From Bacteroidales bacterium (GTDB lineage Bacteria; Bacteroidota; Bacteroidia; Bacteroidales; DTGW01): 64,000 nucleotides of DNA. The position numbers and the translations under genes were made by a program. The notes under the pieces were generated by a model. The model was not told the DNA's origin. It searched no databases and worked only from the letters and a program-made list of their open reading frames with translations. Shown in pieces: positions 49,035 through 57,097 of the stretch (position 1 is its first letter; every line of letters begins with the position of its first letter). The DNA is taken from positions 18,850-82,849 of the forward strand of contig JAOAFU010000058.1 of NCBI GenBank assembly GCA_026416115.1. Direction: 5' to 3'.

Positions 49035-51146
49035 ATGAAACAGTCATTAACATTTTTGTTTGCCTTGGCCCAGGTGCTGATGATAAACGCTGCTCCAAGT
49101 TGGTATGACGAAGCACCTAAACGTATAGACAGCTTGCGTAAAGCTAATTTCGTATTACAAATTTTGGATAGTACCGGCCAGCCGGTGACCGATTCAATTC
49201 GTGTCGATCTGGCAAAGCATAAATTTGTATTTGGTGTTGTAATGGACCCCGAAACATCTCCTGGCAGCTTGTCGTGGGACCGTGCCACCATGTACCGATA
49301 CTACAATGCCGCCGTATCGGGTAACGCTTTCAAATGGAGCGGAATTGAAGCACAAAAAGGTGTACTTACATACGAAGGTTTCGATGAAATGCTGCAATGG
49401 TGCGAACGTGTAGGATGGACCCTAAAAGGCCATTGCTTGCTCTGGAATGGACATGCAGGTAACTATCACGAAGTACCTCGTTGGGTGCAAGAACTCCCCA
49501 CTTCTGAAGAAGCTAAAGAAGCTTGTCGTAACAGAATAATTCGTGATATGACTCGCTATAAGGGCAGGGTTTTCGAGTACGACGTAATGAACGAACCTTC
49601 ACATACTTTTTTCCTTACTAATAAAATCGGAGACTCTATTAATTGGCTGTCGTTTAAATGGGCACGCCAGGCCGATAGTACAGCCGAACTTTATGTAAAC
49701 GACTATAACCTCATAGAGTGGGATGAGCATATCCCCTTTATCAACCTGGTTAGAAAAATGCTCGACAATGGTGCTCCTATCGACGGAATAGGTATTCAGG
49801 GACATTTCGGGGGTTCTATTAATACCAACGATGTAAAACGACGACTCGATGCACTGGCAACCCTCGGATTAAAAATGAGAATTACCGAATTCGATATGGA
49901 TGTTACTGCACAAAAAGTAACTCCAATTAATCAGGCAATGTATTACGCCCGCATGCTTCGCATCGCTTTTTCATATCCTCAAATAACAGGTTTTTACTTC
50001 TGGGGACTCATCGATGGAAAAGTATGGCGTGCTGGTTCAGGTATTTTCAATATCAACAAAGAGCCCAAACCCGCTGCCGACTCGGTATACAACCTCATTC
50101 ATAAGGAATGGAGCACCCACTTAAAAGGGGTTACCGCTCCCAATGGCCAATTCGCTTTTCGTGGTTTCCTCGGAAAGTATCATGTGTTTGCTAAAATAAA
50201 TGGACAATGGAAGGAATTTCGTATCGATCTCGATGAAAAAGTGAAAGATTCCGTTTTAGTTCTTCGCGAAAACGAAGGTATGGTTCCACGCCCTCGATTA
50301 GTTAAAGGGAAACTGATAGCTCCCCGTATCATCGAGCTTAAATTCGATAAAAAAATGGCCGACCCCTCAGCACAAAAAACCAATTTTGAGGTATACGGTA
50401 GAGTTAAAAATACCATCCTTAACGCTTCATTAAAAGAAGGAGACTCAACTACCATAGTGCTAAATCTAAAATACGACCTACTTTACAACTATTACGTGAC
50501 TGTAGCGTACATGAAAGGCGACCAAAAAGCTGCCGACGGCACATCGCTCGACATTTTTGGCGCTACCCCAATCGAAAATATGCTTCCAGGCATTAAATCG
50601 GCTTCTACTACTCCCGATGGTTCGCAGATTATTGTTCGACTTAATAAAAACATGAATGAACCTAACCAAAATACCGATACGATTAGTGTTATCGTAAATT
50701 CTATTCCTGTTTTAATCGACAAAATCGAATTTAAAGACGATAGTGCTTCTGTCCTGCTTATTACCCTTACAAACCCGGTTAAATTCAATGATTTAGTTTA
50801 CTTTAACTATAAACCCGGTACATGGTCGACAACCGAAGGAATTGCACTTCCTGCAACGGGTAACATTTTGGTCGAAAACAAAGTGCCTAACGCTATTGAT
50901 AACGCAAATAGCAGCCAAATTGAAGTTTATCCCAATCCCGTAAAAGATATACTCACTGTAAAATTTGCATACGGAAATTATCAGATTTCAATCTACGATA
51001 TGCTTGGTAAAGAAATTCTCAAAACAACATCTACGGGAGCGGAAATTAAATTAGATATGCGTAACTTGAATAAAGGTATTTATTTCCTGAAAATTAATAA
51101 TAGCCAAAATGGTCAAATTCAAAACTTTAAAATAAATAAACTATAA
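49035..51146 (+). CDS. GH10-family glycoside hydrolase (endo-1,4-beta-xylanase-like) with Ig-like spacer domains and a T9SS C-terminal domain
   Basis: GNAFKWSGIE, LKGHCLLW, YDVMNEP (acid/base Glu) and RITEFDM (nucleophile Glu) follow the GH10 pattern. The protein ends YPNPVKDILTV...GIYFLKINNSQNGQIQNFKINKL. I moved the start to ATG 49035 (MKQSLTFLFALAQ). Confidence 0.75.
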   Translation: MKQSLTFLFALAQVLMINAAPSWYDEAPKRIDSLRKANFVLQILDSTGQPVTDSIRVDLAKHKFVFGVVMDPETSPGSLSWDRATMYRYYNAAVSGNAFKWSGIEAQKGVLTYEGFDEMLQWCERVGWTLKGHCLLWNGHAGNYHEVPRWVQELPTSEEAKEACRNRIIRDMTRYKGRVFEYDVMNEPSHTFFLTNKIGDSINWLSFKWARQADSTAELYVNDYNLIEWDEHIPFINLVRKMLDNGAPIDGIGIQGHFGGSINTNDVKRRLDALATLGLKMRITEFDMDVTAQKVTPINQAMYYARMLRIAFSYPQITGFYFWGLIDGKVWRAGSGIFNINKEPKPAADSVYNLIHKEWSTHLKGVTAPNGQFAFRGFLGKYHVFAKINGQWKEFRIDLDEKVKDSVLVLRENEGMVPRPRLVKGKLIAPRIIELKFDKKMADPSAQKTNFEVYGRVKNTILNASLKEGDSTTIVLNLKYDLLYNYYVTVAYMKGDQKAADGTSLDIFGATPIENMLPGIKSASTTPDGSQIIVRLNKNMNEPNQNTDTISVIVNSIPVLIDKIEFKDDSASVLLITLTNPVKFNDLVYFNYKPGTWSTTEGIALPATGNILVENKVPNAIDNANSSQIEVYPNPVKDILTVKFAYGNYQISIYDMLGKEILKTTSTGAEIKLDMRNLNKGIYFLKINNSQNGQIQNFKINKL

Positions 51147-51216
51147 ATTATTGAATAATCCATAAAGTAATTTTGTACTTTTGTATTCATAGTTATTGAG
51201 TTTTTGGTTAAAAAGG

Positions 51217-51263
51217 AGTTGCTTTGCGTAGCCAACGGCTAACTTGCAAGGCAACTTTTTTTG
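51217..51263 (+). terminator. Rho-independent terminator after the GH10 gene
   Basis: AGUUGCUUUGC (51217-27) pairs with GCAAGGCAACU (51246-56), including one G-U. There is an inner GUAGCC/GGCUA extension, and the stem is followed by U7. Confidence 0.75.
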
Positions 51264-51363
51264 TAAGTAAAACCATACTATCTTTGGCGCATTATCGTTC
51301 TCTTTGTATCATTTCAAAAAAACAAGTGTGCTATAATTTTATCCCCTAAAAAATTTTTTCAAC

Positions 51364-52047
51364 ATGAGAGCTAAAACCTTTTTCTTTCTTTTCCAATTCG
51401 CATTTGGTACTTTATGGGCACAACAAGTTCGACAACTTGAAGTACCCTCGTTTAAATCTGTTGAAGTTTTAGGCAATTTCGAAGTCATTCTCGAAGAAAG
51501 TCAGCAAGAAGGTATATCGCTTATTGGTAATAACGAGGAGGCCTCGCGCGTAAAAGTTGCCGTAAAAAACGGAATCCTTCGTTTAAGTGATATTAAATCG
51601 CTTAACAAGCGCCCCGATGTGATGATTGTAGTTAAATATATACAGCTCGAAAAAATTCTTGCTACAGGTGGTTCGTTCGTATATAATAAAAATGATTGGC
51701 AGATATCAAATCTCGAAATTACTTGTAGCAGCGGTGCAAAAGTTGACCTCTCTCTAAAAGCCGATAAATTAAAGGTCGACGTCGACAAAGGTGGTACTGT
51801 TTCATTAAAAGGTAAAACCCCTACACTCGAAGCCGAAGCATCAACCGGCGGTATTTTCGATGCATTTGAATTAAGCACCAATGATGCTGTAGTTCGTGCT
51901 AATACTGGCGGTTTAGTAAAAGTATTTGCTAAAAACACCCTTGAAGCTAATGCTGGAGCAGGTGGTGAAATTATTTACCGGGGTAGTCCCAAAAAATTGA
52001 TGCCCAAAAAAGTGCTGGGTGGAAAAATTGAACAAATGATCGAATAG
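51364..52047 (+). CDS. DUF2807 / head GIN-domain (putative beta-helical) secreted protein
   Basis: 227 aa with a signal peptide. Repeated GG.(V/F/I) turns (ATGGSFVY, KGGTVSL, STGGIFD, NTGGLVK, GAGGEIIYRGSP) are typical of DUF2807. Confidence 0.65.
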   Translation: MRAKTFFFLFQFAFGTLWAQQVRQLEVPSFKSVEVLGNFEVILEESQQEGISLIGNNEEASRVKVAVKNGILRLSDIKSLNKRPDVMIVVKYIQLEKILATGGSFVYNKNDWQISNLEITCSSGAKVDLSLKADKLKVDVDKGGTVSLKGKTPTLEAEASTGGIFDAFELSTNDAVVRANTGGLVKVFAKNTLEANAGAGGEIIYRGSPKKLMPKKVLGGKIEQMIE

Positions 52048-52054
52048 TACAGCG

Positions 52055-52729
52055 CTATTTATTGAGCATTGGAAATAGCGCTTCGGCCACAGCCAAATCG
52101 GTTTGGGTAGTTATTTTAATATTCTCCCTGTTCCCTTCAACCAAGATAACTCGGTGACCAGCTCTTTCAAAAACGGTCGCATCATCGGTAAATTCGGCCG
52201 AAAATTCGATGCTATACGCTTGTTTTAGCTTGGATATATCGAACACCTGAGGGGTTTGAATAAGAACAAATTCATTTCTGTCGACAGGTATACTCTCATC
52301 AACCAAAAGTTTGCGTAGAGAGTCAACAGGAACTACAGTAGGTACCGCATTGCCCAAATGGGCTGCAGTTTCGAAACACCTCTGAAGGGTCGACTGGCTA
52401 ACCAAAGGTCTTACTGCATCATGAACTGCAACAAGCCCATCGCCCGCTATTGCATTAAGACCATTTTTAACCGAATGAAATCGGGTTTCGCCCCCTAATA
52501 CCTTCATATGGGGAATTTTGATTTTGTATTCTTGAATCAAACTCTCCCAAAACTCTAAATAATCTGAAGGTAGGGTTACAATAAGCTGAATTTTCTTATC
52601 AAACTCGTAAAAAGCATTTAAAGTATGATATAATACAGGTCGACCCCTGAGGGTAAGAAATTGCTTCGGTATCGAAGATCCAAAACGTTTTCCTGTACCC
52701 CCGGCGACAATAATTGCATATTTGCGCAT
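52055..52729 (-). CDS. ispD: 2-C-methyl-D-erythritol 4-phosphate cytidylyltransferase
   Basis: 224 aa. The N-terminus AIIVAGGTGKRFGSSIPKQF, HDAVRP and QTPQ fit the IspD pattern. Confidence 0.9.
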   Translation of the reverse strand: MRKYAIIVAGGTGKRFGSSIPKQFLTLRGRPVLYHTLNAFYEFDKKIQLIVTLPSDYLEFWESLIQEYKIKIPHMKVLGGETRFHSVKNGLNAIAGDGLVAVHDAVRPLVSQSTLQRCFETAAHLGNAVPTVVPVDSLRKLLVDESIPVDRNEFVLIQTPQVFDISKLKQAYSIEFSAEFTDDATVFERAGHRVILVEGNRENIKITTQTDLAVAEALFPMLNK

Positions 52730-52734
52730 AATTT

Positions 52735-53118
52735 TTAATCGAAAATAATCGGAGTAATTTTCAAACCCGTTTCAGCCTCAAATCCCTGTATTTCCATCAA
52801 CATATCGGGATCCTCTCGCTTATAATACCAGTTAACTTTGACTTGACCTCCATTGTCCTGGTAGCTTTTAAGCAAATCGAGTATTTCGAGAATAAAACGC
52901 GAAGATGCCGTATTGAAATAGGTTAGCTTTAGATTAAATTCAATGGGTTTTTTTTCCTGTATGTAATCCTTTAACCACCTGATAACAGGTTCGTAAAATT
53001 TGAAGGTTTCTTCCATATAACTTTCACCCACAATTTCACATACTCCAGAGTAATAATTAAAATTAACAAGAGGATAATACACAAGATCAGGATAGTTATT
53101 GATATACAAGCTTTCCAT
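52735..53118 (-). CDS. DUF1987 / SiaC-like partner-switching protein
   Basis: 127 aa. G.CEI.GESYMEETFKFYEPVIRWLKDY...IEFNLKLTYFNTASSRFILEIL matches my recollection of the DUF1987 (SiaC) pattern. It sits 19 nt after the SiaB-like gene and 5 nt before ispD. Confidence 0.65.
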   Translation of the reverse strand: MESLYINNYPDLVYYPLVNFNYYSGVCEIVGESYMEETFKFYEPVIRWLKDYIQEKKPIEFNLKLTYFNTASSRFILEILDLLKSYQDNGGQVKVNWYYKREDPDMLMEIQGFEAETGLKITPIIFD

Positions 53119-53137
53119 AGTTTTTTCTTTTAAAAAG

Positions 53138-53647
53138 TTAGGAAATTATGGAAGAAATGGTAAAATAAGTGTTATCGTTTTCTTTCGTAATGGAAACATC
53201 CAAAAGATTTTTAGAAAATAGTCGTATTGAGATGAGACCTATATGGGCCCCATTATCTTTGATCGACGACTCGCGACGAAGTTTTTCTTTAAGCTTTATT
53301 AGGTCGTTGGTAGTTGCTTCATTTATGCGTTGACAATAGTTAATCAGTATATCTCCATGTTCGGGTCGTATCCGGTTTTTGGTAGTACAAAAATACGATT
53401 TACCATCGGTCTCTATATGCACTTTGCCTACCCCAACGGTATTATCAAGCTCCTGCTTTACCCGGTCTTCAGAATACAGGGCAACATTCTGCGAAATCTC
53501 GATAAATACCCGATAAAGACTCATTCGTGTCTCGAACGAGGCATCGAGATATTCGGCCAGGTATTTTCCAAGGGAAGAAATAATCCGCATGTTAAACGGC
53601 CCCTCGTAGGAAAATACAATTTTTTTATCCGTTGCATTAGCATTCAT
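53138..53647 (-). CDS. SiaB-like (DUF6272) putative Ser/Thr kinase of the anti-sigma/GHKL-like fold
   Basis: 169 aa. IVFSYEGPFNMRIISSLGKYL...LYRVFIEISQNVALYS has the size and pattern of SiaB-family proteins. It is adjacent to the DUF1987 gene and a PP2C gene. Confidence 0.55.
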   Translation of the reverse strand: MNANATDKKIVFSYEGPFNMRIISSLGKYLAEYLDASFETRMSLYRVFIEISQNVALYSEDRVKQELDNTVGVGKVHIETDGKSYFCTTKNRIRPEHGDILINYCQRINEATTNDLIKLKEKLRRESSIKDNGAHIGLISIRLFSKNLLDVSITKENDNTYFTISSIIS

Positions 53648-53737
53648 GGAGAATAATTGTTTTATTATTAATCAACCACAGTACTTTTATTACAAACTTA
53701 ATAATATATTCTCTTATTACCAACCACAAATAGTGGT

Positions 53738-55474
53738 TTATTTTAAACCAATTGCCATCAGGGTAATATCGTCGCGCTGGGGCTCGTTCTGTTTAAAAGT
53801 TTCGAGCGAATTGTGCAAATATACCATAAAACTGTCGAGCGAACTAGTCAAACATTCATTGGCAATATTTATTAACCGCGGCGTACCAAATTTGCTTCGT
53901 TGAGGATTGGGTTGGTCGATAATCCCATCGGTGTACATCAATATGGTATCGCCTGCATGGAGCAAAAAATGTTTTTCGCTGTACGATTTCAAATTTTTTT
54001 GTCTCAGATTTCCTATCGAAATAATATCGCCTTCTATTGTCTTCGATTCCTTAATCTGTTGCTGAAAAATGATAATTGGCCTTTTAGCTCCCGCAAATAC
54101 TAACTCATACTGTTTTTCATCGACTTTCAAAATACGACACAAGGCTATATCCATTCCATCGATAGTATGGCTCGAGGGTTGATGCAATTCATTAATAAGC
54201 AAAAGATTGAGATGATATAAAATTTCAGACGGCTGAATTTTATTTCTAACCCCTATTATTTCATTCAAAAGCCTGTTGCCTATCATCGACATAAAGGCTC
54301 CTGGTACCCCATGCCCTGTACAATCGACAACCGCAAAAAAATGATAGGTCAGCTGATTGATTGTTACCCTATGATACCAGTAAAAATCTCCCGAAACAAT
54401 ATCTTTCGGCGAAAAAATCAACGCTGTATCAAAGTCGTTCTTTAATTGCGTTAAATCGGGCAGCATGGCATTCTGTATACGCTGGCCATAGAATATGCTG
54501 TCGGTAATATTTTTGTTTTTTATATTTAGTTCATTTCGCTGCATGAGAATTTCTTTTCTCTGACGTTCGATTCGCAAAAGCATTAAAGCCAAAACAATAA
54601 GAAAACCAACAACAATTATAAGACTTGCCGTAATTATACGACGTATATTTTTCTCGTATCTGAGTTGTAGCTCCTTCTGTTCGAGTTGAGCAGTTTTTTG
54701 TGCAATCTCCATTTGACGCTGCATCGCTATTTTTTCGGCAACAAATAACGAATCCTGCGTGAGCTTCAACTCGCCTTTCTTTATTTTTAGCTCAATTTCG
54801 GCCATCTGCCTAGCAAGTTGTGCCTTGTTGATTTCTTCGGTACTCATATTTTTGATGAGTTCCATTTCCTGTTGCTTTATTTTTTTATCGGTAGCCGAAT
54901 AAAGCTCGAAAAACTTGAAAGCATTTTTCGAGTCGCCCGACTTTTCATAACTCTCGGCTAACAGACTATAACATTTCGCTATGTTTTTCAGATTATTCTG
55001 TTCCAAAGCCATATTCAAAGCTTCTTTAGCATGCTGTATGGCCAAAGGATAGCTCTCCATGTCGATATCGACGTTCGCCAAATTTATCAAGGCATTGTAT
55101 ATCTCAGCTTGATTCTTCATAAGTCGCGCATAACGCAGCGCATTTAAAAATGCCTTTTCTGCTTTTTGTAATTTTTCAAGCTCCGAGTATATAAGCCCAA
55201 GATTATTGCTTAAGGTAATACAAGCTACTGCATTGTTAGCTTGTTCAAAAATTTCATATGCCTTCTCAAATGCAGATGCAGCCTTTTCTTTTTGTCCCTT
55301 ATTCCAATAAGCATATCCGGCTTTGTTGTAATATTCGGCCGCTTGCATCATCTTGCCCTGTTGACGATATCCATCGGCCAATATCTCAAAATCGCTAATT
55401 GGAGTCTGAAAACTTGTTAAGAAAATCCCTACAATTAAAAACCCTATAAATGTTAAACTTTTCATGTTTAGCAT
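53738..55474 (-). CDS. TPR-containing transmembrane PP2C (SpoIIE-type) protein phosphatase, SiaA-like
   Basis: 578 aa. It has a signal/TM segment, extracytoplasmic TPR repeats, a long coiled coil and a TM helix (IITASLIIVVGFLIVLALMLL). The PP2C domain follows (SGDFYWY...VVDCTGHGVPGAFMS...MDIALC...LMYTDGIID...QRDDITLMAI). Confidence 0.8.
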   Translation of the reverse strand: MLNMKSLTFIGFLIVGIFLTSFQTPISDFEILADGYRQQGKMMQAAEYYNKAGYAYWNKGQKEKAASAFEKAYEIFEQANNAVACITLSNNLGLIYSELEKLQKAEKAFLNALRYARLMKNQAEIYNALINLANVDIDMESYPLAIQHAKEALNMALEQNNLKNIAKCYSLLAESYEKSGDSKNAFKFFELYSATDKKIKQQEMELIKNMSTEEINKAQLARQMAEIELKIKKGELKLTQDSLFVAEKIAMQRQMEIAQKTAQLEQKELQLRYEKNIRRIITASLIIVVGFLIVLALMLLRIERQRKEILMQRNELNIKNKNITDSIFYGQRIQNAMLPDLTQLKNDFDTALIFSPKDIVSGDFYWYHRVTINQLTYHFFAVVDCTGHGVPGAFMSMIGNRLLNEIIGVRNKIQPSEILYHLNLLLINELHQPSSHTIDGMDIALCRILKVDEKQYELVFAGAKRPIIIFQQQIKESKTIEGDIISIGNLRQKNLKSYSEKHFLLHAGDTILMYTDGIIDQPNPQRSKFGTPRLINIANECLTSSLDSFMVYLHNSLETFKQNEPQRDDITLMAIGLK

Positions 55475-55817
55475 ATCGTTTCGTGTACGATAAATTTTTT
55501 TTATCTAAAAATTTTACGGGAAATTTTGAAATAAGTTCTAAAATATTCGTAAATATTGTAATCCTATAATTTAGTATATAAGAATTATACAAATTTTAAA
55601 TTTTACTAAAATTACTAAATTATTTATTACTAAAGCTCTAATAAAGAATCATTTATATTTGATGCAATTGAAATTTGATAAATCAAAATATCAAAAATCG
55701 GTTCGCTTAGCAATAAAAGCGCAACAATACTCGACCATCGAAAGGGATATACTAATACCGGGATGTAGTTCAATAAACCCTTCTCAAAATCGTCTAAGAA
55801 ATTCTAATTACAGTAAA

Positions 55818-55866
55818 ATTAAATTTGTTAAAATGTTTTGACTATAACGATTTTAACAAATTTAAT
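55818..55866. promoter_or_regulatory. Perfect 17-bp inverted repeat with a 15-nt spacer in a 575-bp AT-rich divergent intergenic region
   Basis: ATTAAATTTGTTAAAAT (55818-55834) and ATTTTAACAAATTTAAT (55850-55866) are exact reverse complements. Confidence 0.4.
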
Positions 55867-56049
55867 AGTAATTGCTTGCAATAATAATTGATGGCTAGTT
55901 AGAGACAAACAAAAAAAGATGTTGCATTAAAGTAAAAAGCCTGAAAAATTATACTTAAGAAGTAATCAGAAAAAATTTTGTTTTGCACTCTAATACTTTT
56001 GTTAAATTTTATAGTTAAATTTGAATAAAGCAGTTCTAATTTTTTCATT

Positions 56050-56292
56050 ATGAAAAAAATTTTAAAATCCTTATTTGGTTTATTCGTCCTAACGGCGATT
56101 ATCACACATATTTGGACTGTAATTATCGCTTTTAGCGAAGCGGGCTTCCTTGGGGGTGTAATTACCTTAATTCTCCCTTTTCTTGGAGAAATCTATTGGA
56201 TGATCAAAATGTTTGGCGAGAATGACACCTATGCTTATATAGCACTAATCCACTTAATATTAGCCATTCCTTTTTCTATGTTTAGACGTTAA
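56050..56292 (+). CDS. Small hypothetical membrane protein (about 3 TM)
   Basis: 80 aa, strongly hydrophobic (LFGLFVLTAIITHIWTVIIAF, GGVITLILPFLGEIYWMI, YIALIHLILAIPF). No family recognised. Confidence 0.45.
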   Translation: MKKILKSLFGLFVLTAIITHIWTVIIAFSEAGFLGGVITLILPFLGEIYWMIKMFGENDTYAYIALIHLILAIPFSMFRR

Positions 56293-56440
56293 GCTAGTTT
56301 GAGTATCACCACATAACGTACCTTTAACTATCCCTCAATGAGGGTCTACTAAATTAATCAAGTGCTTTGCTCCTCGCAAAAGAGAGTTACTTGACGTGGT
56401 ACATTGTCGTTATAAATTGCAAATTATTATCCTACATTTT

Positions 56441-57097
56441 ATGAAACTCCTGTATACAATAATGTTTTTGGCATACATAAATGTTTTGTTTGCTCAAAAG
56501 ATTGAAGTTTTCGGAGGTGCTTGTTATAATATTTTTCACGACTACAACAAAAACGAAGGTCACTATATGTCGTCCTACAAATCGGAATTTGGATATTCGT
56601 CAGGGTTTGGGATAGATAGTATAACGATTGATAAGATACCGTTTAGATTTACTTTACAACTCGACAAATATGGTGGCAAAATAGATGTAAGTGATGGTGG
56701 GTTAGGAGGAGGATATAAAACTGTTGCCACTGTAGATAAATTAATAATTTCGTTAGGTATTTTCCCTGTAAATTTGATGATTTTTAAAAAAATTGAAATT
56801 AACATAGGGTTAATAATTTCAAGATTAATCGATGAAACATTTATCGGCACATCAAGTGGCTGGATGTTAAATCAACCAAGTTGGAGCTATAATTTACATG
56901 ACATATATGATCGTTTCAGCTCATCAACTTACACTGGATTACAAGGACGGATAGCATGCGATTTCAAAGCATTTAAGTCGGTATGGATAACCCCCCAGTA
57001 TTTTTATTACTACGGTATATCGGACGAATTTACAAAACTAGATACCAAATCAAAGAGACATTATATTGGCATAGGAATTAAAAAAAGAATTAAATGA
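56441..57097 (+). CDS. Hypothetical secreted / outer-membrane beta-rich protein
   Basis: It has the signal peptide MKLLYTIMFLAYINVLFAQ and alternating Gly/aromatic beta-strand-like composition. I moved the start to ATG 56441. Confidence 0.4.
   Translation: MKLLYTIMFLAYINVLFAQKIEVFGGACYNIFHDYNKNEGHYMSSYKSEFGYSSGFGIDSITIDKIPFRFTLQLDKYGGKIDVSDGGLGGGYKTVATVDKLIISLGIFPVNLMIFKKIEINIGLIISRLIDETFIGTSSGWMLNQPSWSYNLHDIYDRFSSSTYTGLQGRIACDFKAFKSVWITPQYFYYYGISDEFTKLDTKSKRHYIGIGIKKRIK

Follow-up and report, generated by a model that had tools for sequence, protein, structure and literature searches.

A SiaABC-type partner-switching cassette directly upstream of ispD in a Bacteroidales genome without detectable c-di-GMP genes

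Four genes lie in series on the minus strand of the 64,000-nucleotide window (the whole stretch of DNA that we analyzed), which comes from an uncultured Bacteroidales bacterium (Table 1). In order of transcription, they encode a SiaA-like sensor phosphatase, a SiaB-family putative kinase, a SiaC-family phosphoprotein, and IspD, and are separated by 90, 19, and 5 nt. The open reading frame (ORF) coordinates thus agree with the gene order, strand, and spacing given in a preliminary description of this DNA, and our HMM searches matched all three of the families it had proposed to check, DUF1987, DUF6272, and SpoIIE.

Table 1. Features of the siaABC-ispD locus, in order of transcription (positions are those of the window)
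Feature	Position	Strand	Size or residues	Assignment
siaA-like sensor phosphatase	53738..55474	-	578 aa	N-terminal anchor/signal, TPR region, charged helical linker, second TM segment, PP2C/SpoIIE domain
SiaA hydrophobic segment 1	55403..55459	-	residues ~6-24	signal/anchor; Kyte-Doolittle 19-residue window ≥1.6
SiaA TPR sensor region	54842..55390	-	residues ~29-211	TPR family matches; predicted periplasmic
SiaA TM segment 2	54572..54637	-	residues ~280-301	Kyte-Doolittle maximum 2.98
SiaA PP2C/SpoIIE catalytic domain	53747..54340	-	residues 379-576	PF07228 and motifs
Candidate internal promoter, siaA-siaB spacer	53692..53723	-		TTG-N20-TAAGTTTG; Bacteroidetes-type box; putative promoter function
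siaB-family putative Ser/Thr kinase	53138..53647	-	169 aa	DUF6272, GHKL-like fold
siaC-family phosphoprotein	52735..53118	-	127 aa	DUF1987, PF09345
SiaC Thr70 codon	52909..52911	-		aligns with phosphorylated Thr68 of P. aeruginosa SiaC
ispD (2-C-methyl-D-erythritol 4-phosphate cytidylyltransferase)	52055..52729	-	224 aa	3' end of operon, putative passenger

The first protein had been read as a TPR, transmembrane, and PP2C protein, and its matches bear this out. A Pfam search identified PF07228 (SpoIIE; E = 5.8e-25; 88.8 bits, cutoff 25), and the PP2C motifs, with their metal-binding Asp residues, are present (GDF362, DCTGHG384, TDG515, and DDIT568). Matches to TPR_12, TPR_8, TPR_2, and TPR_1 span residues 46 to 191, and a SNAP-like match covers residues 29 to 211. 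This region is bracketed by the two hydrophobic segments, a topology that fits a periplasmic sensor joined to a cytoplasmic PP2C domain; no HAMP domain was detected in SiaA. Its score against the NCBIfam equivalog NF038263 (139.3 bits) is below the cutoff of 700, and only residues 305 to 575 align, to model positions 393 to 655. Residues 35 to 309 also match the FimS-like model NF053520 (E = 3.7e-6), far under the family cutoff: in its N-terminal anchor, putative periplasmic TPR region, and TM segment, SiaA resembles the FimS type of TPR sensor histidine kinase found in Porphyromonas and other Bacteroidales, but for output it has a PP2C phosphatase in place of the histidine kinase.

The second protein, as had been proposed, is SiaB-like: it matched DUF6272 (PF19788; E = 2.1e-21; 76.4 bits, cutoff 26.6) and passed the subfamily cutoff of the NCBIfam model SiaB_fam_kinase (NF038262; 105.7 versus 85 bits), while scoring 53.1 bits against the equivalog NF038264, below its cutoff of 225. 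Pseudomonas aeruginosa SiaB (PDB 6KKO_A) was matched by sequence (E = 1.7e-8) and was the top Foldseek match of the AF2 model (pLDDT 89.7; E = 5.7e-8; TM 0.71); the next fold matches were the anti-σ kinases SpoIIAB and the SigF anti-σ factor (TM 0.50 to 0.65). Across 26 aligned SiaB proteins, N-box residues E50 and N54 and residue G137 never vary, and G133 almost never does. The ATP lid reads GAHIGL and is invariant across orthologous Bacteroidales cassettes; P. aeruginosa SiaB and three of this genome's own SiaB paralogs instead have GxGxGL. By analogy with P. aeruginosa, and with the N-box and lid glycines conserved, SiaB would phosphorylate its cognate SiaC on threonine, using a lid of the GAHIGL rather than the GxGxGL form.

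Assignment of the third protein to DUF1987/SiaC also held (PF09345; E = 1.7e-36; 124.9 bits, gathering cutoff 24.5). It scored 80.1 bits against the equivalog NF038265, below the cutoff of 150, and matched the structures of P. aeruginosa SiaC (PDB 6KKO_C/6K4F; E = 3.4e-14). As the phospho-site we took a phosphorylatable Thr at the position of P. aeruginosa T68, at the start of helix α2, whose role has been described (PMC8457831, PMC7647112). The HMMER alignment places YFNT70AS of SiaC opposite YLNT68SS of the P. aeruginosa protein. This position is T or S in 12 of 12 SiaC paralogs of the genome, which are strongly diverged (phmmer E values of 5e-38 to 7e-5 against the cassette SiaC).

The siaABC cassette is under purifying selection. 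Synonymous sites are saturated in comparison with the congener (pS ∼0.8), all frames are intact, and pN is far below pS in siaA, siaB, and siaC. Of the four proteins, SiaC is under the strongest constraint (98.4% amino acid identity; pN 0.016, pS 0.84), followed by SiaB (pN 0.060), SiaA (80% identity; pN 0.116), and IspD (75% identity; pN 0.170). The siaA-siaB spacer contains a 21-nt block, AGAATATATTATTAAGTTTGT (53712-53692), that is identical at the congener locus (L045) despite this saturation, and within it, on the minus strand, a match to TAnnTTTG (53700-53693). The block is conserved within this genus only, and the spacer measures 0 to 60 nt in other genera versus 90 nt here. Across the window, such boxes number 96 against 81 expected, which is not a significant enrichment.

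The preliminary description's suggestion that ispD is cotranscribed with the Sia genes is plausible: the siaC-ispD gap is 5 nt here and 11 nt in the congener, and neither a promoter box nor a conserved nucleotide block was found inside siaC. Third-codon-position identity is low in the 3' part of siaC, and so no embedded ispD promoter is visible there. Judging from these features, ispD is probably cotranscribed with siaBC.

IspD itself is unremarkable. It passes the equivalog NF001186 (289.9 bits versus a cutoff of 253), with residues 1 to 219 on model positions 3 to 222 of 224; this alignment shows a canonical length and no docking extension at either terminus. Its gene is single copy in the genome. 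Among 24 relatives with an ispD match, Sia genes lie upstream of it in one, a genome of the same genus; conversely, ispD lies downstream of siaC in 1 of 80 related SiaC loci. In five other genera of the family, the orthologous cassette ends at SiaC beside unrelated genes, with ispD elsewhere, and the nearest cassette outside the genus on the tree (L046) also lacks ispD. SiaA, SiaB, and SiaC are found together at ∼20 more distant orthologous loci, whose neighbors vary (a convergent frd/sdh operon, aminopeptidase P, a T9SS protein, or ADH), again with ispD elsewhere. The cassette is therefore a stand-alone unit without a conserved downstream gene. The preliminary description had raised a possible envelope-signal input into isoprenoid/undecaprenyl supply, and had itself counted a lack of conserved adjacency against that idea; because the adjacency is confined to one genus, a functional input into IspD or isoprenoid supply is unsupported, and ispD appears to be an operon passenger outside the switch. 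Another SiaC paralog precedes ligA just as tightly, in two genera only, which suggests that such junctions arise readily.

The absence of a GGDEF gene, noted earlier for the locus, extends well beyond it: we found no GGDEF (PF00990), EAL, or PilZ domain in the genome (92% complete) or in the congener (98% complete), which argues that the output of the switch is not c-di-GMP. The strict form of a SiaD-stalk-like motif is absent from the proteome, and two relaxed forms occurred once and three times, below the means for shuffled sequences. Across the order, SiaC is present in 59 of 121 genomes and GGDEF in 8 of 121, with both in only 2. The genome carries 12 SiaC, 6 SiaB, and 11 PP2C sensor phosphatase genes; 7 of the 11 phosphatase genes adjoin no SiaC, and half of the SiaC genes (6 of 12) have no adjacent kinase or phosphatase. 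Two STAS genes and one clear RsbW-like (HATPase_c_2) gene are also present, all away from the cassette.

The closest characterized system is P. aeruginosa SiaABCD (PA0172-PA0169; PDB 6K4E, 6K4F, 6KKO, and 7E6G), which shares the membrane PP2C, DUF6272 kinase, and DUF1987 phosphoprotein in the same gene order; the cassette SiaC keeps the N-T phospho-site, and the SiaB model superposes on its P. aeruginosa counterpart. The two differ in that the Bacteroidales genome has no SiaD or other c-di-GMP machinery and has an expanded gene set, the putative SiaA input is a periplasmic TPR region (only the PP2C part matches the SiaA model), all three proteins fall under the NCBIfam equivalog cutoffs, and the housekeeping gene ispD occupies the position of SiaD. 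The Firmicutes switches RsbU/RsbV/RsbW and SpoIIE/SpoIIAA/SpoIIAB likewise combine a PP2C, a GHKL Ser/Thr kinase, and a small phosphoprotein that chooses partners by phosphorylation, and SpoIIAB structures are the second-best fold matches of the SiaB model. However, SiaC matches PF09345 only and SiaB PF19788 only, so that by sequence the phosphoprotein is not STAS, the kinase is not HATPase_c_2, and the pair is not of the RsbV/RsbW type; nor does the cassette have a known or adjacent σ factor partner. Paralogous, uncharacterized cassettes in Bacteroidota, including a copy on a contig of this genome (C81), have the same three families in the same order. In contrast to the cassette studied here, they end with a conserved ∼1,030-aa protein (TerB, ABC, and ABC2_membrane domains; 49 of 80 loci), an obvious candidate effector.

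We favor, with a probability of roughly 0.62, a complete and functional SiaABC-type partner switch that is independent of c-di-GMP. The SiaA TPR domain would detect a periplasmic signal, upon which the cytoplasmic PP2C domain would dephosphorylate SiaC-P; SiaB, a GHKL-fold kinase, would phosphorylate SiaC at Thr70. Unphosphorylated SiaC would then bind and modulate the product of an unlinked gene, one other than a diguanylate cyclase. The direction of signaling and the role of SiaC as the output-bearing partner are carried over from the P. aeruginosa system, and we infer them on that basis; offered for SiaC in this role are the excess of SiaC over SiaB genes (12 versus 6), the T or S kept in every copy, and the strength of the constraint on SiaC. 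As for ispD, a rearrangement in the ancestor of the genus may have placed the cassette directly upstream of it, with loss of its own upstream region; it would most likely be transcribed with siaB-siaC from a promoter particular to this genus that lies in the widened siaA-siaB spacer, with added read-through from siaA.

IspD could instead be the direct client of SiaC, with the TPR signal tuning the MEP pathway and undecaprenyl supply through SiaC binding or coupled transcription. DUF1987 proteins have been suggested to modulate adjacent proteins (PMC8457831), the short gap implies cotranscription, and the TerB-ABC exporter that follows SiaC in the paralogous cassettes indicates that a downstream position can mark a client. 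Retention of the tight 5- and 11-nt junctions in two species is compatible with functional coupling to IspD and does not require it. We nonetheless consider this very unlikely: only one genus shows the adjacency, orthologous cassettes of the five sister genera and ∼20 further genomes lack ispD, the equally tight siaC-ligA junction is found in only two genera, IspD has diverged by 25% where SiaC has hardly changed, and neither terminus of IspD carries an added segment like the SiaD stalk or the TerB domain of the exporter. Still less credible is that the cassette is a decaying, nonfunctional remnant kept only as carrier of the ispD promoter. The unusual SiaB lid might be read in that way, but it is invariant across orthologous cassettes, the frames are intact, and the pattern of substitution in all three genes, above all the near identity of SiaC despite saturated synonymous sites, points the other way.

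Two further explanations, both unlikely, place the output elsewhere. Because the SiaB fold resembles the anti-σ kinases SpoIIAB and UsfX, SiaB could itself carry the output, sequestering a σ factor or other regulator and releasing it when unphosphorylated SiaC binds SiaB; no effector adjoins the cassette, and SiaABC has been described as a partner switch with an anti-σ-like kinase (PMC7647112). In P. aeruginosa, however, the effector is bound by SiaC, not SiaB (PMC7278518). SiaC genes outnumber SiaB genes, six SiaC genes stand apart from any kinase or phosphatase gene, and SiaC is under stronger constraint than SiaB. To our knowledge, no group 3 σ factor partner is known in Bacteroidales, which also counts against output through SiaB. 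Slightly harder to sustain is that the cassette lacks a target of its own and feeds a many-to-many network of PP2Cs, SiaBs, and SiaC paralogs whose outputs lie beside other paralogs, such as the TerB-ABC exporter. The seven phosphatase genes that adjoin no SiaC, the abundance of SiaB and SiaC genes relative to STAS and RsbW-like genes, and the phospho-site kept in all SiaC paralogs would suit such a network, but many genera keep the three cassette genes side by side, a sign of cognate specificity, and the SiaC paralogs are highly diverged.

More speculatively, SiaB and SiaC may have replaced STAS and RsbW as the main Ser/Thr partner switch in environmental Bacteroidales without c-di-GMP, with each SiaC paralog serving a different noncyclase client as its phospho-gated adaptor (the TerB-ABC exporter, and perhaps enzymes beside orphan SiaCs). 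The near-invariant SiaC of this cassette would then control a conserved client, which in this genus could include IspD; we regard this wider proposal as doubtful.

For annotation, the locus serves as a warning that a tight junction conserved only within a genus is poor ground for a functional link. The one role hitherto known for SiaABC is to regulate a diguanylate cyclase in Pseudomonas. Since the switch is intact, constrained, and multiplied in bacteria without c-di-GMP signaling, the SiaC family must have other clients. SiaC occurs in about half of the Bacteroidales genomes sampled, and identifying its clients would open an unstudied layer of signaling in a major phylum.

The siaA, siaB, siaC and ispD ORFs are separated by 90 (siaA/siaB), 19 (siaB/siaC) and 5 (siaC/ispD) nt on the minus strand, exactly as claimed in the preliminary description, whose proposed SpoIIE, DUF6272 and DUF1987 memberships were all matched in profile searches. 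None of the three signalling proteins scored high enough to pass as an equivalog in the P. aeruginosa SiaA, SiaB and SiaC models, and the SiaA-model match was confined to the PP2C half of the 578-aa protein. The siaA-siaB-siaC cassette represents the SiaB and SiaC families, yet differs from the Pseudomonas system at the equivalog level and is without that system's defining effector, the diguanylate cyclase SiaD. A look-up of the exact SiaC sequence found no record in public assemblies, and an Rfam scan of 51000-57000 found no RNA family at E up to 0.1.

Genes of the siaA-siaB-siaC-ispD cluster, with family matches and divergence from the second genome of the genus (pN, non-synonymous divergence)
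Protein	Length (aa)	Position	Strand	Family match	pN	Amino acid identity
SiaA-like	578	53738-55474	minus	TPR repeats + SpoIIE/PP2C PF07228, 5.8e-25 (profile search)	0.116	80%
SiaB-like	169	53138-53647	minus	DUF6272; NCBIfam 'SiaB family protein kinase', 105.7 bits (cut-off 85)	0.060	90%
SiaC-like	127	52735-53118	minus	Pfam SiaC/DUF1987, 1.7e-36	0.016	98.4%
IspD	224	52055-52729	minus	equivalog NF001186, 289.9 bits (cut-off 253)	0.170	75%

Two hydrophobic segments of SiaA (~6-24 and 280-301) flank the TPR region and a charged helical linker, and four PP2C signature motifs (GDF362, DCTGHG384, TDG515, and DDIT568) lie C-terminal of the linker. Because the PP2C domain must reach cytoplasmic SiaC, we infer that the TPR region is periplasmic; in profile searches this sensor part weakly resembled TPR histidine kinases of the FimS type. 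SiaC aligned with P. aeruginosa SiaC (PDB 6KKO/6K4F) at 3.4e-14, its YFNT70AS motif superimposed on YLNT68SS; in P. aeruginosa, SiaB adds a phosphate to T68 and SiaA removes it, and SiaC cannot bind its effector while T68 is phosphorylated (PMC8457831, PMC7647112, PMC7278518). SiaB aligned with its P. aeruginosa counterpart at 1.7e-8, and an AlphaFold model built from 26 relatives (pLDDT 89.7) had that same protein as its top PDB match (TM 0.71), followed by anti-σ kinases (SpoIIAB and the SigF anti-σ factor). Residues E50, N54, and G137 are invariant among 26 aligned SiaB proteins, and the ATP-lid sequence GAHIGL is clade-specific in SiaB of Bacteroidales cassettes.

Comparison of the two species of the genus shows clearly that the SiaA-SiaB-SiaC cassette is functional. 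Of the four proteins, SiaC is under much the strongest constraint (see table), as would be expected if so small a protein has to accommodate a phosphatase, a kinase, and at least one client.

The preliminary description raised the possibility that the switch feeds an envelope signal into isoprenoid/undecaprenyl supply, or acts on another effector; a link to IspD is weakened by the distribution of the four-gene arrangement. Among 24 relatives with an ispD match, SiaC, SiaB and SiaA lay upstream of ispD only in the same-genus genome (G001, cassette locus L045); ispD in the order is usually preceded by an orthologue of a 349-aa gene, which in our genome is on another contig, and a divergent upstream region of its own precedes ispD in sister genera. 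We approached the question from the cassette side by comparing 80 related SiaC loci, only one of which has ispD after SiaC. In a SiaB+SiaC tree, our cassette and that of its congener sit next to L046, within a 95%-supported clade of Bacteroidales cassettes whose members are all TPR-PP2C/SiaB/SiaC, some with an extra receiver-PP2C gene upstream. The gene after SiaC in this clade is variable and often convergent (frd/sdh operon, aminopeptidase P, T9SS protein, or alcohol dehydrogenase), and orthologous cassettes in five other genera of the family, with SiaC 54-66% identical, end at SiaC and have unrelated neighbours. IspD itself aligns with its family model over the whole length and carries no added segment that might act as a docking module. 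Given a genus-only adjacency and no docking segment, IspD is very unlikely to be a client of the switch. A different family of the order has a SiaC paralogue two genes from ispD (L032, genome G016), the two being convergent and separated by a DUF2807 gene; this proximity is probably coincidental.

A control junction elsewhere in our genome bears on the same point: on contig C26 (L012:5701-8147; L148-L150), a SiaC paralogue lies 14 nt upstream of ligA, encoding NAD-dependent DNA ligase. This junction was found in 4 of 30 loci, covering each of the genus's three genomes plus a single sister genus, and was absent in the 26 other relatives. Since it is limited to two genera, such tight SiaC-housekeeping gene junctions seem to arise readily and, judged from these genome comparisons, look like shallow, lineage-specific events. 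The rarity of SiaC-ligA also speaks against SiaC paralogues as general markers of a functionally linked downstream enzyme.

As for expression, the ~650 nt preceding ispD, which take in siaC and the 3′ half of siaB, hold no Bacteroidetes-type −7 box (TAnnTTTG) on the minus strand. Between the two species, identity at third codon positions falls to its lowest in the 3′ part of siaC; a search of that part for conserved nucleotides found none, and no sign of an ispD promoter embedded there was seen. The 90-nt siaA-siaB spacer holds TTG-N20-TAAGTTTG, with its TAnnTTTG match at 53700-53693, and a 21-nt block of it, AGAATATATTATTAAGTTTGT, is identical in the congener despite saturated synonymous sites (pS about 0.8); in other genera this spacer is just 0-60 nt. 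We infer that the genus acquired or retained a putative internal promoter driving siaB-siaC-ispD, which would guarantee expression of ispD, a presumably essential gene of the MEP pathway. A scan for σ70-type promoters yielded sites no commoner than in shuffled sequence, and terminator-like matches fall within coding sequence. Upstream of siaA, a 575-nt AT-rich region contains a perfect 17-nt inverted repeat, ATTAAATTTGTTAAAAT (55818-55866, 15 nt between arms), which carries TAnnTTTG boxes on both strands; the corresponding upstream region of the congener, compared by eye without alignment, appears unrelated.

Our genome encodes 12 SiaC-family proteins, all 12 with T or S at the phospho-site, along with six SiaB-family genes (one a tandem double), 11 sensor PP2C phosphatases with TPR, Reg_prop/Y_Y_Y or receiver inputs, but only two STAS genes and one clear RsbW-like gene. 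The 11 SiaC paralogues outside our cassette, each of which keeps the phospho-site T or S, lie on C89, C81, C201, C26, C227, C156, C23, C126, C182, and C64 (L009-L018). Four have an adjacent SiaB (C201, C81, C23, and C89a), and that on C227 lies 3′ of a TPR-PP2C-receiver fusion. Six have no neighbouring kinase or phosphatase; four of these orphans adjoin housekeeping or transport genes, such as ligA, guaA/S41 peptidase, hypD, and an MFS gene. A paralogous cassette on C81 (L013:3182-6250) and in L069-L124 consists of SiaA (~873 aa), SiaB and SiaC, then a TerB-ABC protein. This ~1030-aa TerB + ABC_tran + ABC2_membrane protein follows SiaC in 49 of the 80 related loci, ranging across Bacteroidales and Chitinophaga, and we regard this exporter as a strong candidate for the client of the SiaC paralogue in question.

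Several other arrangements were seen. A receiver-domain PP2C gene, a second PP2C, lies directly 5′ of the TPR-PP2C gene in orthologous cassettes L046, L050, L051, and L053; on C201 (L009:3732-6831) the receiver-PP2C version forms a separate cassette (RR, RR-PP2C, SiaB, SiaC, RidA), and the two types occur together in sister genera. In one sister genus (L128, genome G006), the orthologous SiaA-SiaB-SiaC adjoins orthologues of the two genes flanking the orphan SiaC on C156 (923-2596), which hints at relocation or decay of a cassette at that site. L146 (C64:11656-12744) encodes a 362-aa protein with two tandem DUF6272 (SiaB-like) halves and has no adjacent SiaC or PP2C gene. A related SiaB-SiaC pair also occurs in a cultured bacterium, Thermoflexibacter ruber DSM 9560 (L060). 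The C182 SiaC paralogue lies 5′ of a weak NTP_transferase-like gene adjoining a SusC gene; we judged the resulting "nucleotidyltransferase theme" too weak.

We predict that a periplasmic signal at the TPR domain would set SiaA phosphatase activity, SiaB would phosphorylate T70 of SiaC, and unphosphorylated SiaC would bind a client encoded at an unlinked site. P. aeruginosa SiaABC has the same working logic; RsbU/V/W is a more distant likeness. SiaB may itself have an anti-σ-like role, as the SpoIIAB-like fold of its model suggests, but we favour SiaC, rather than SiaB, as output carrier because SiaC and SiaB genes stand at 12:6, six SiaC genes are orphans, and SiaC is under extreme constraint. 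Residues V78, I81, S82, D83, Y85, Q86, and M88 are the SiaD-stalk contact residues (PMC8457831); a docking motif search built on them found no strict match among 2,869 proteins, and its relaxed patterns found 1 and 3, fewer than the shuffled means.

The claim that no diguanylate cyclase accompanies the cassette holds genome-wide: GGDEF, EAL and PilZ domains are all absent from our genome (92% complete) and the congener (98% complete). A search of the available literature found no description of DUF1987/SiaC in Bacteroidota. Of 121 genomes from the order, 59 carry SiaC (1-22 copies each), eight carry GGDEF, and only two carry both; the SiaC family of this order therefore operates independently of diguanylate cyclases.
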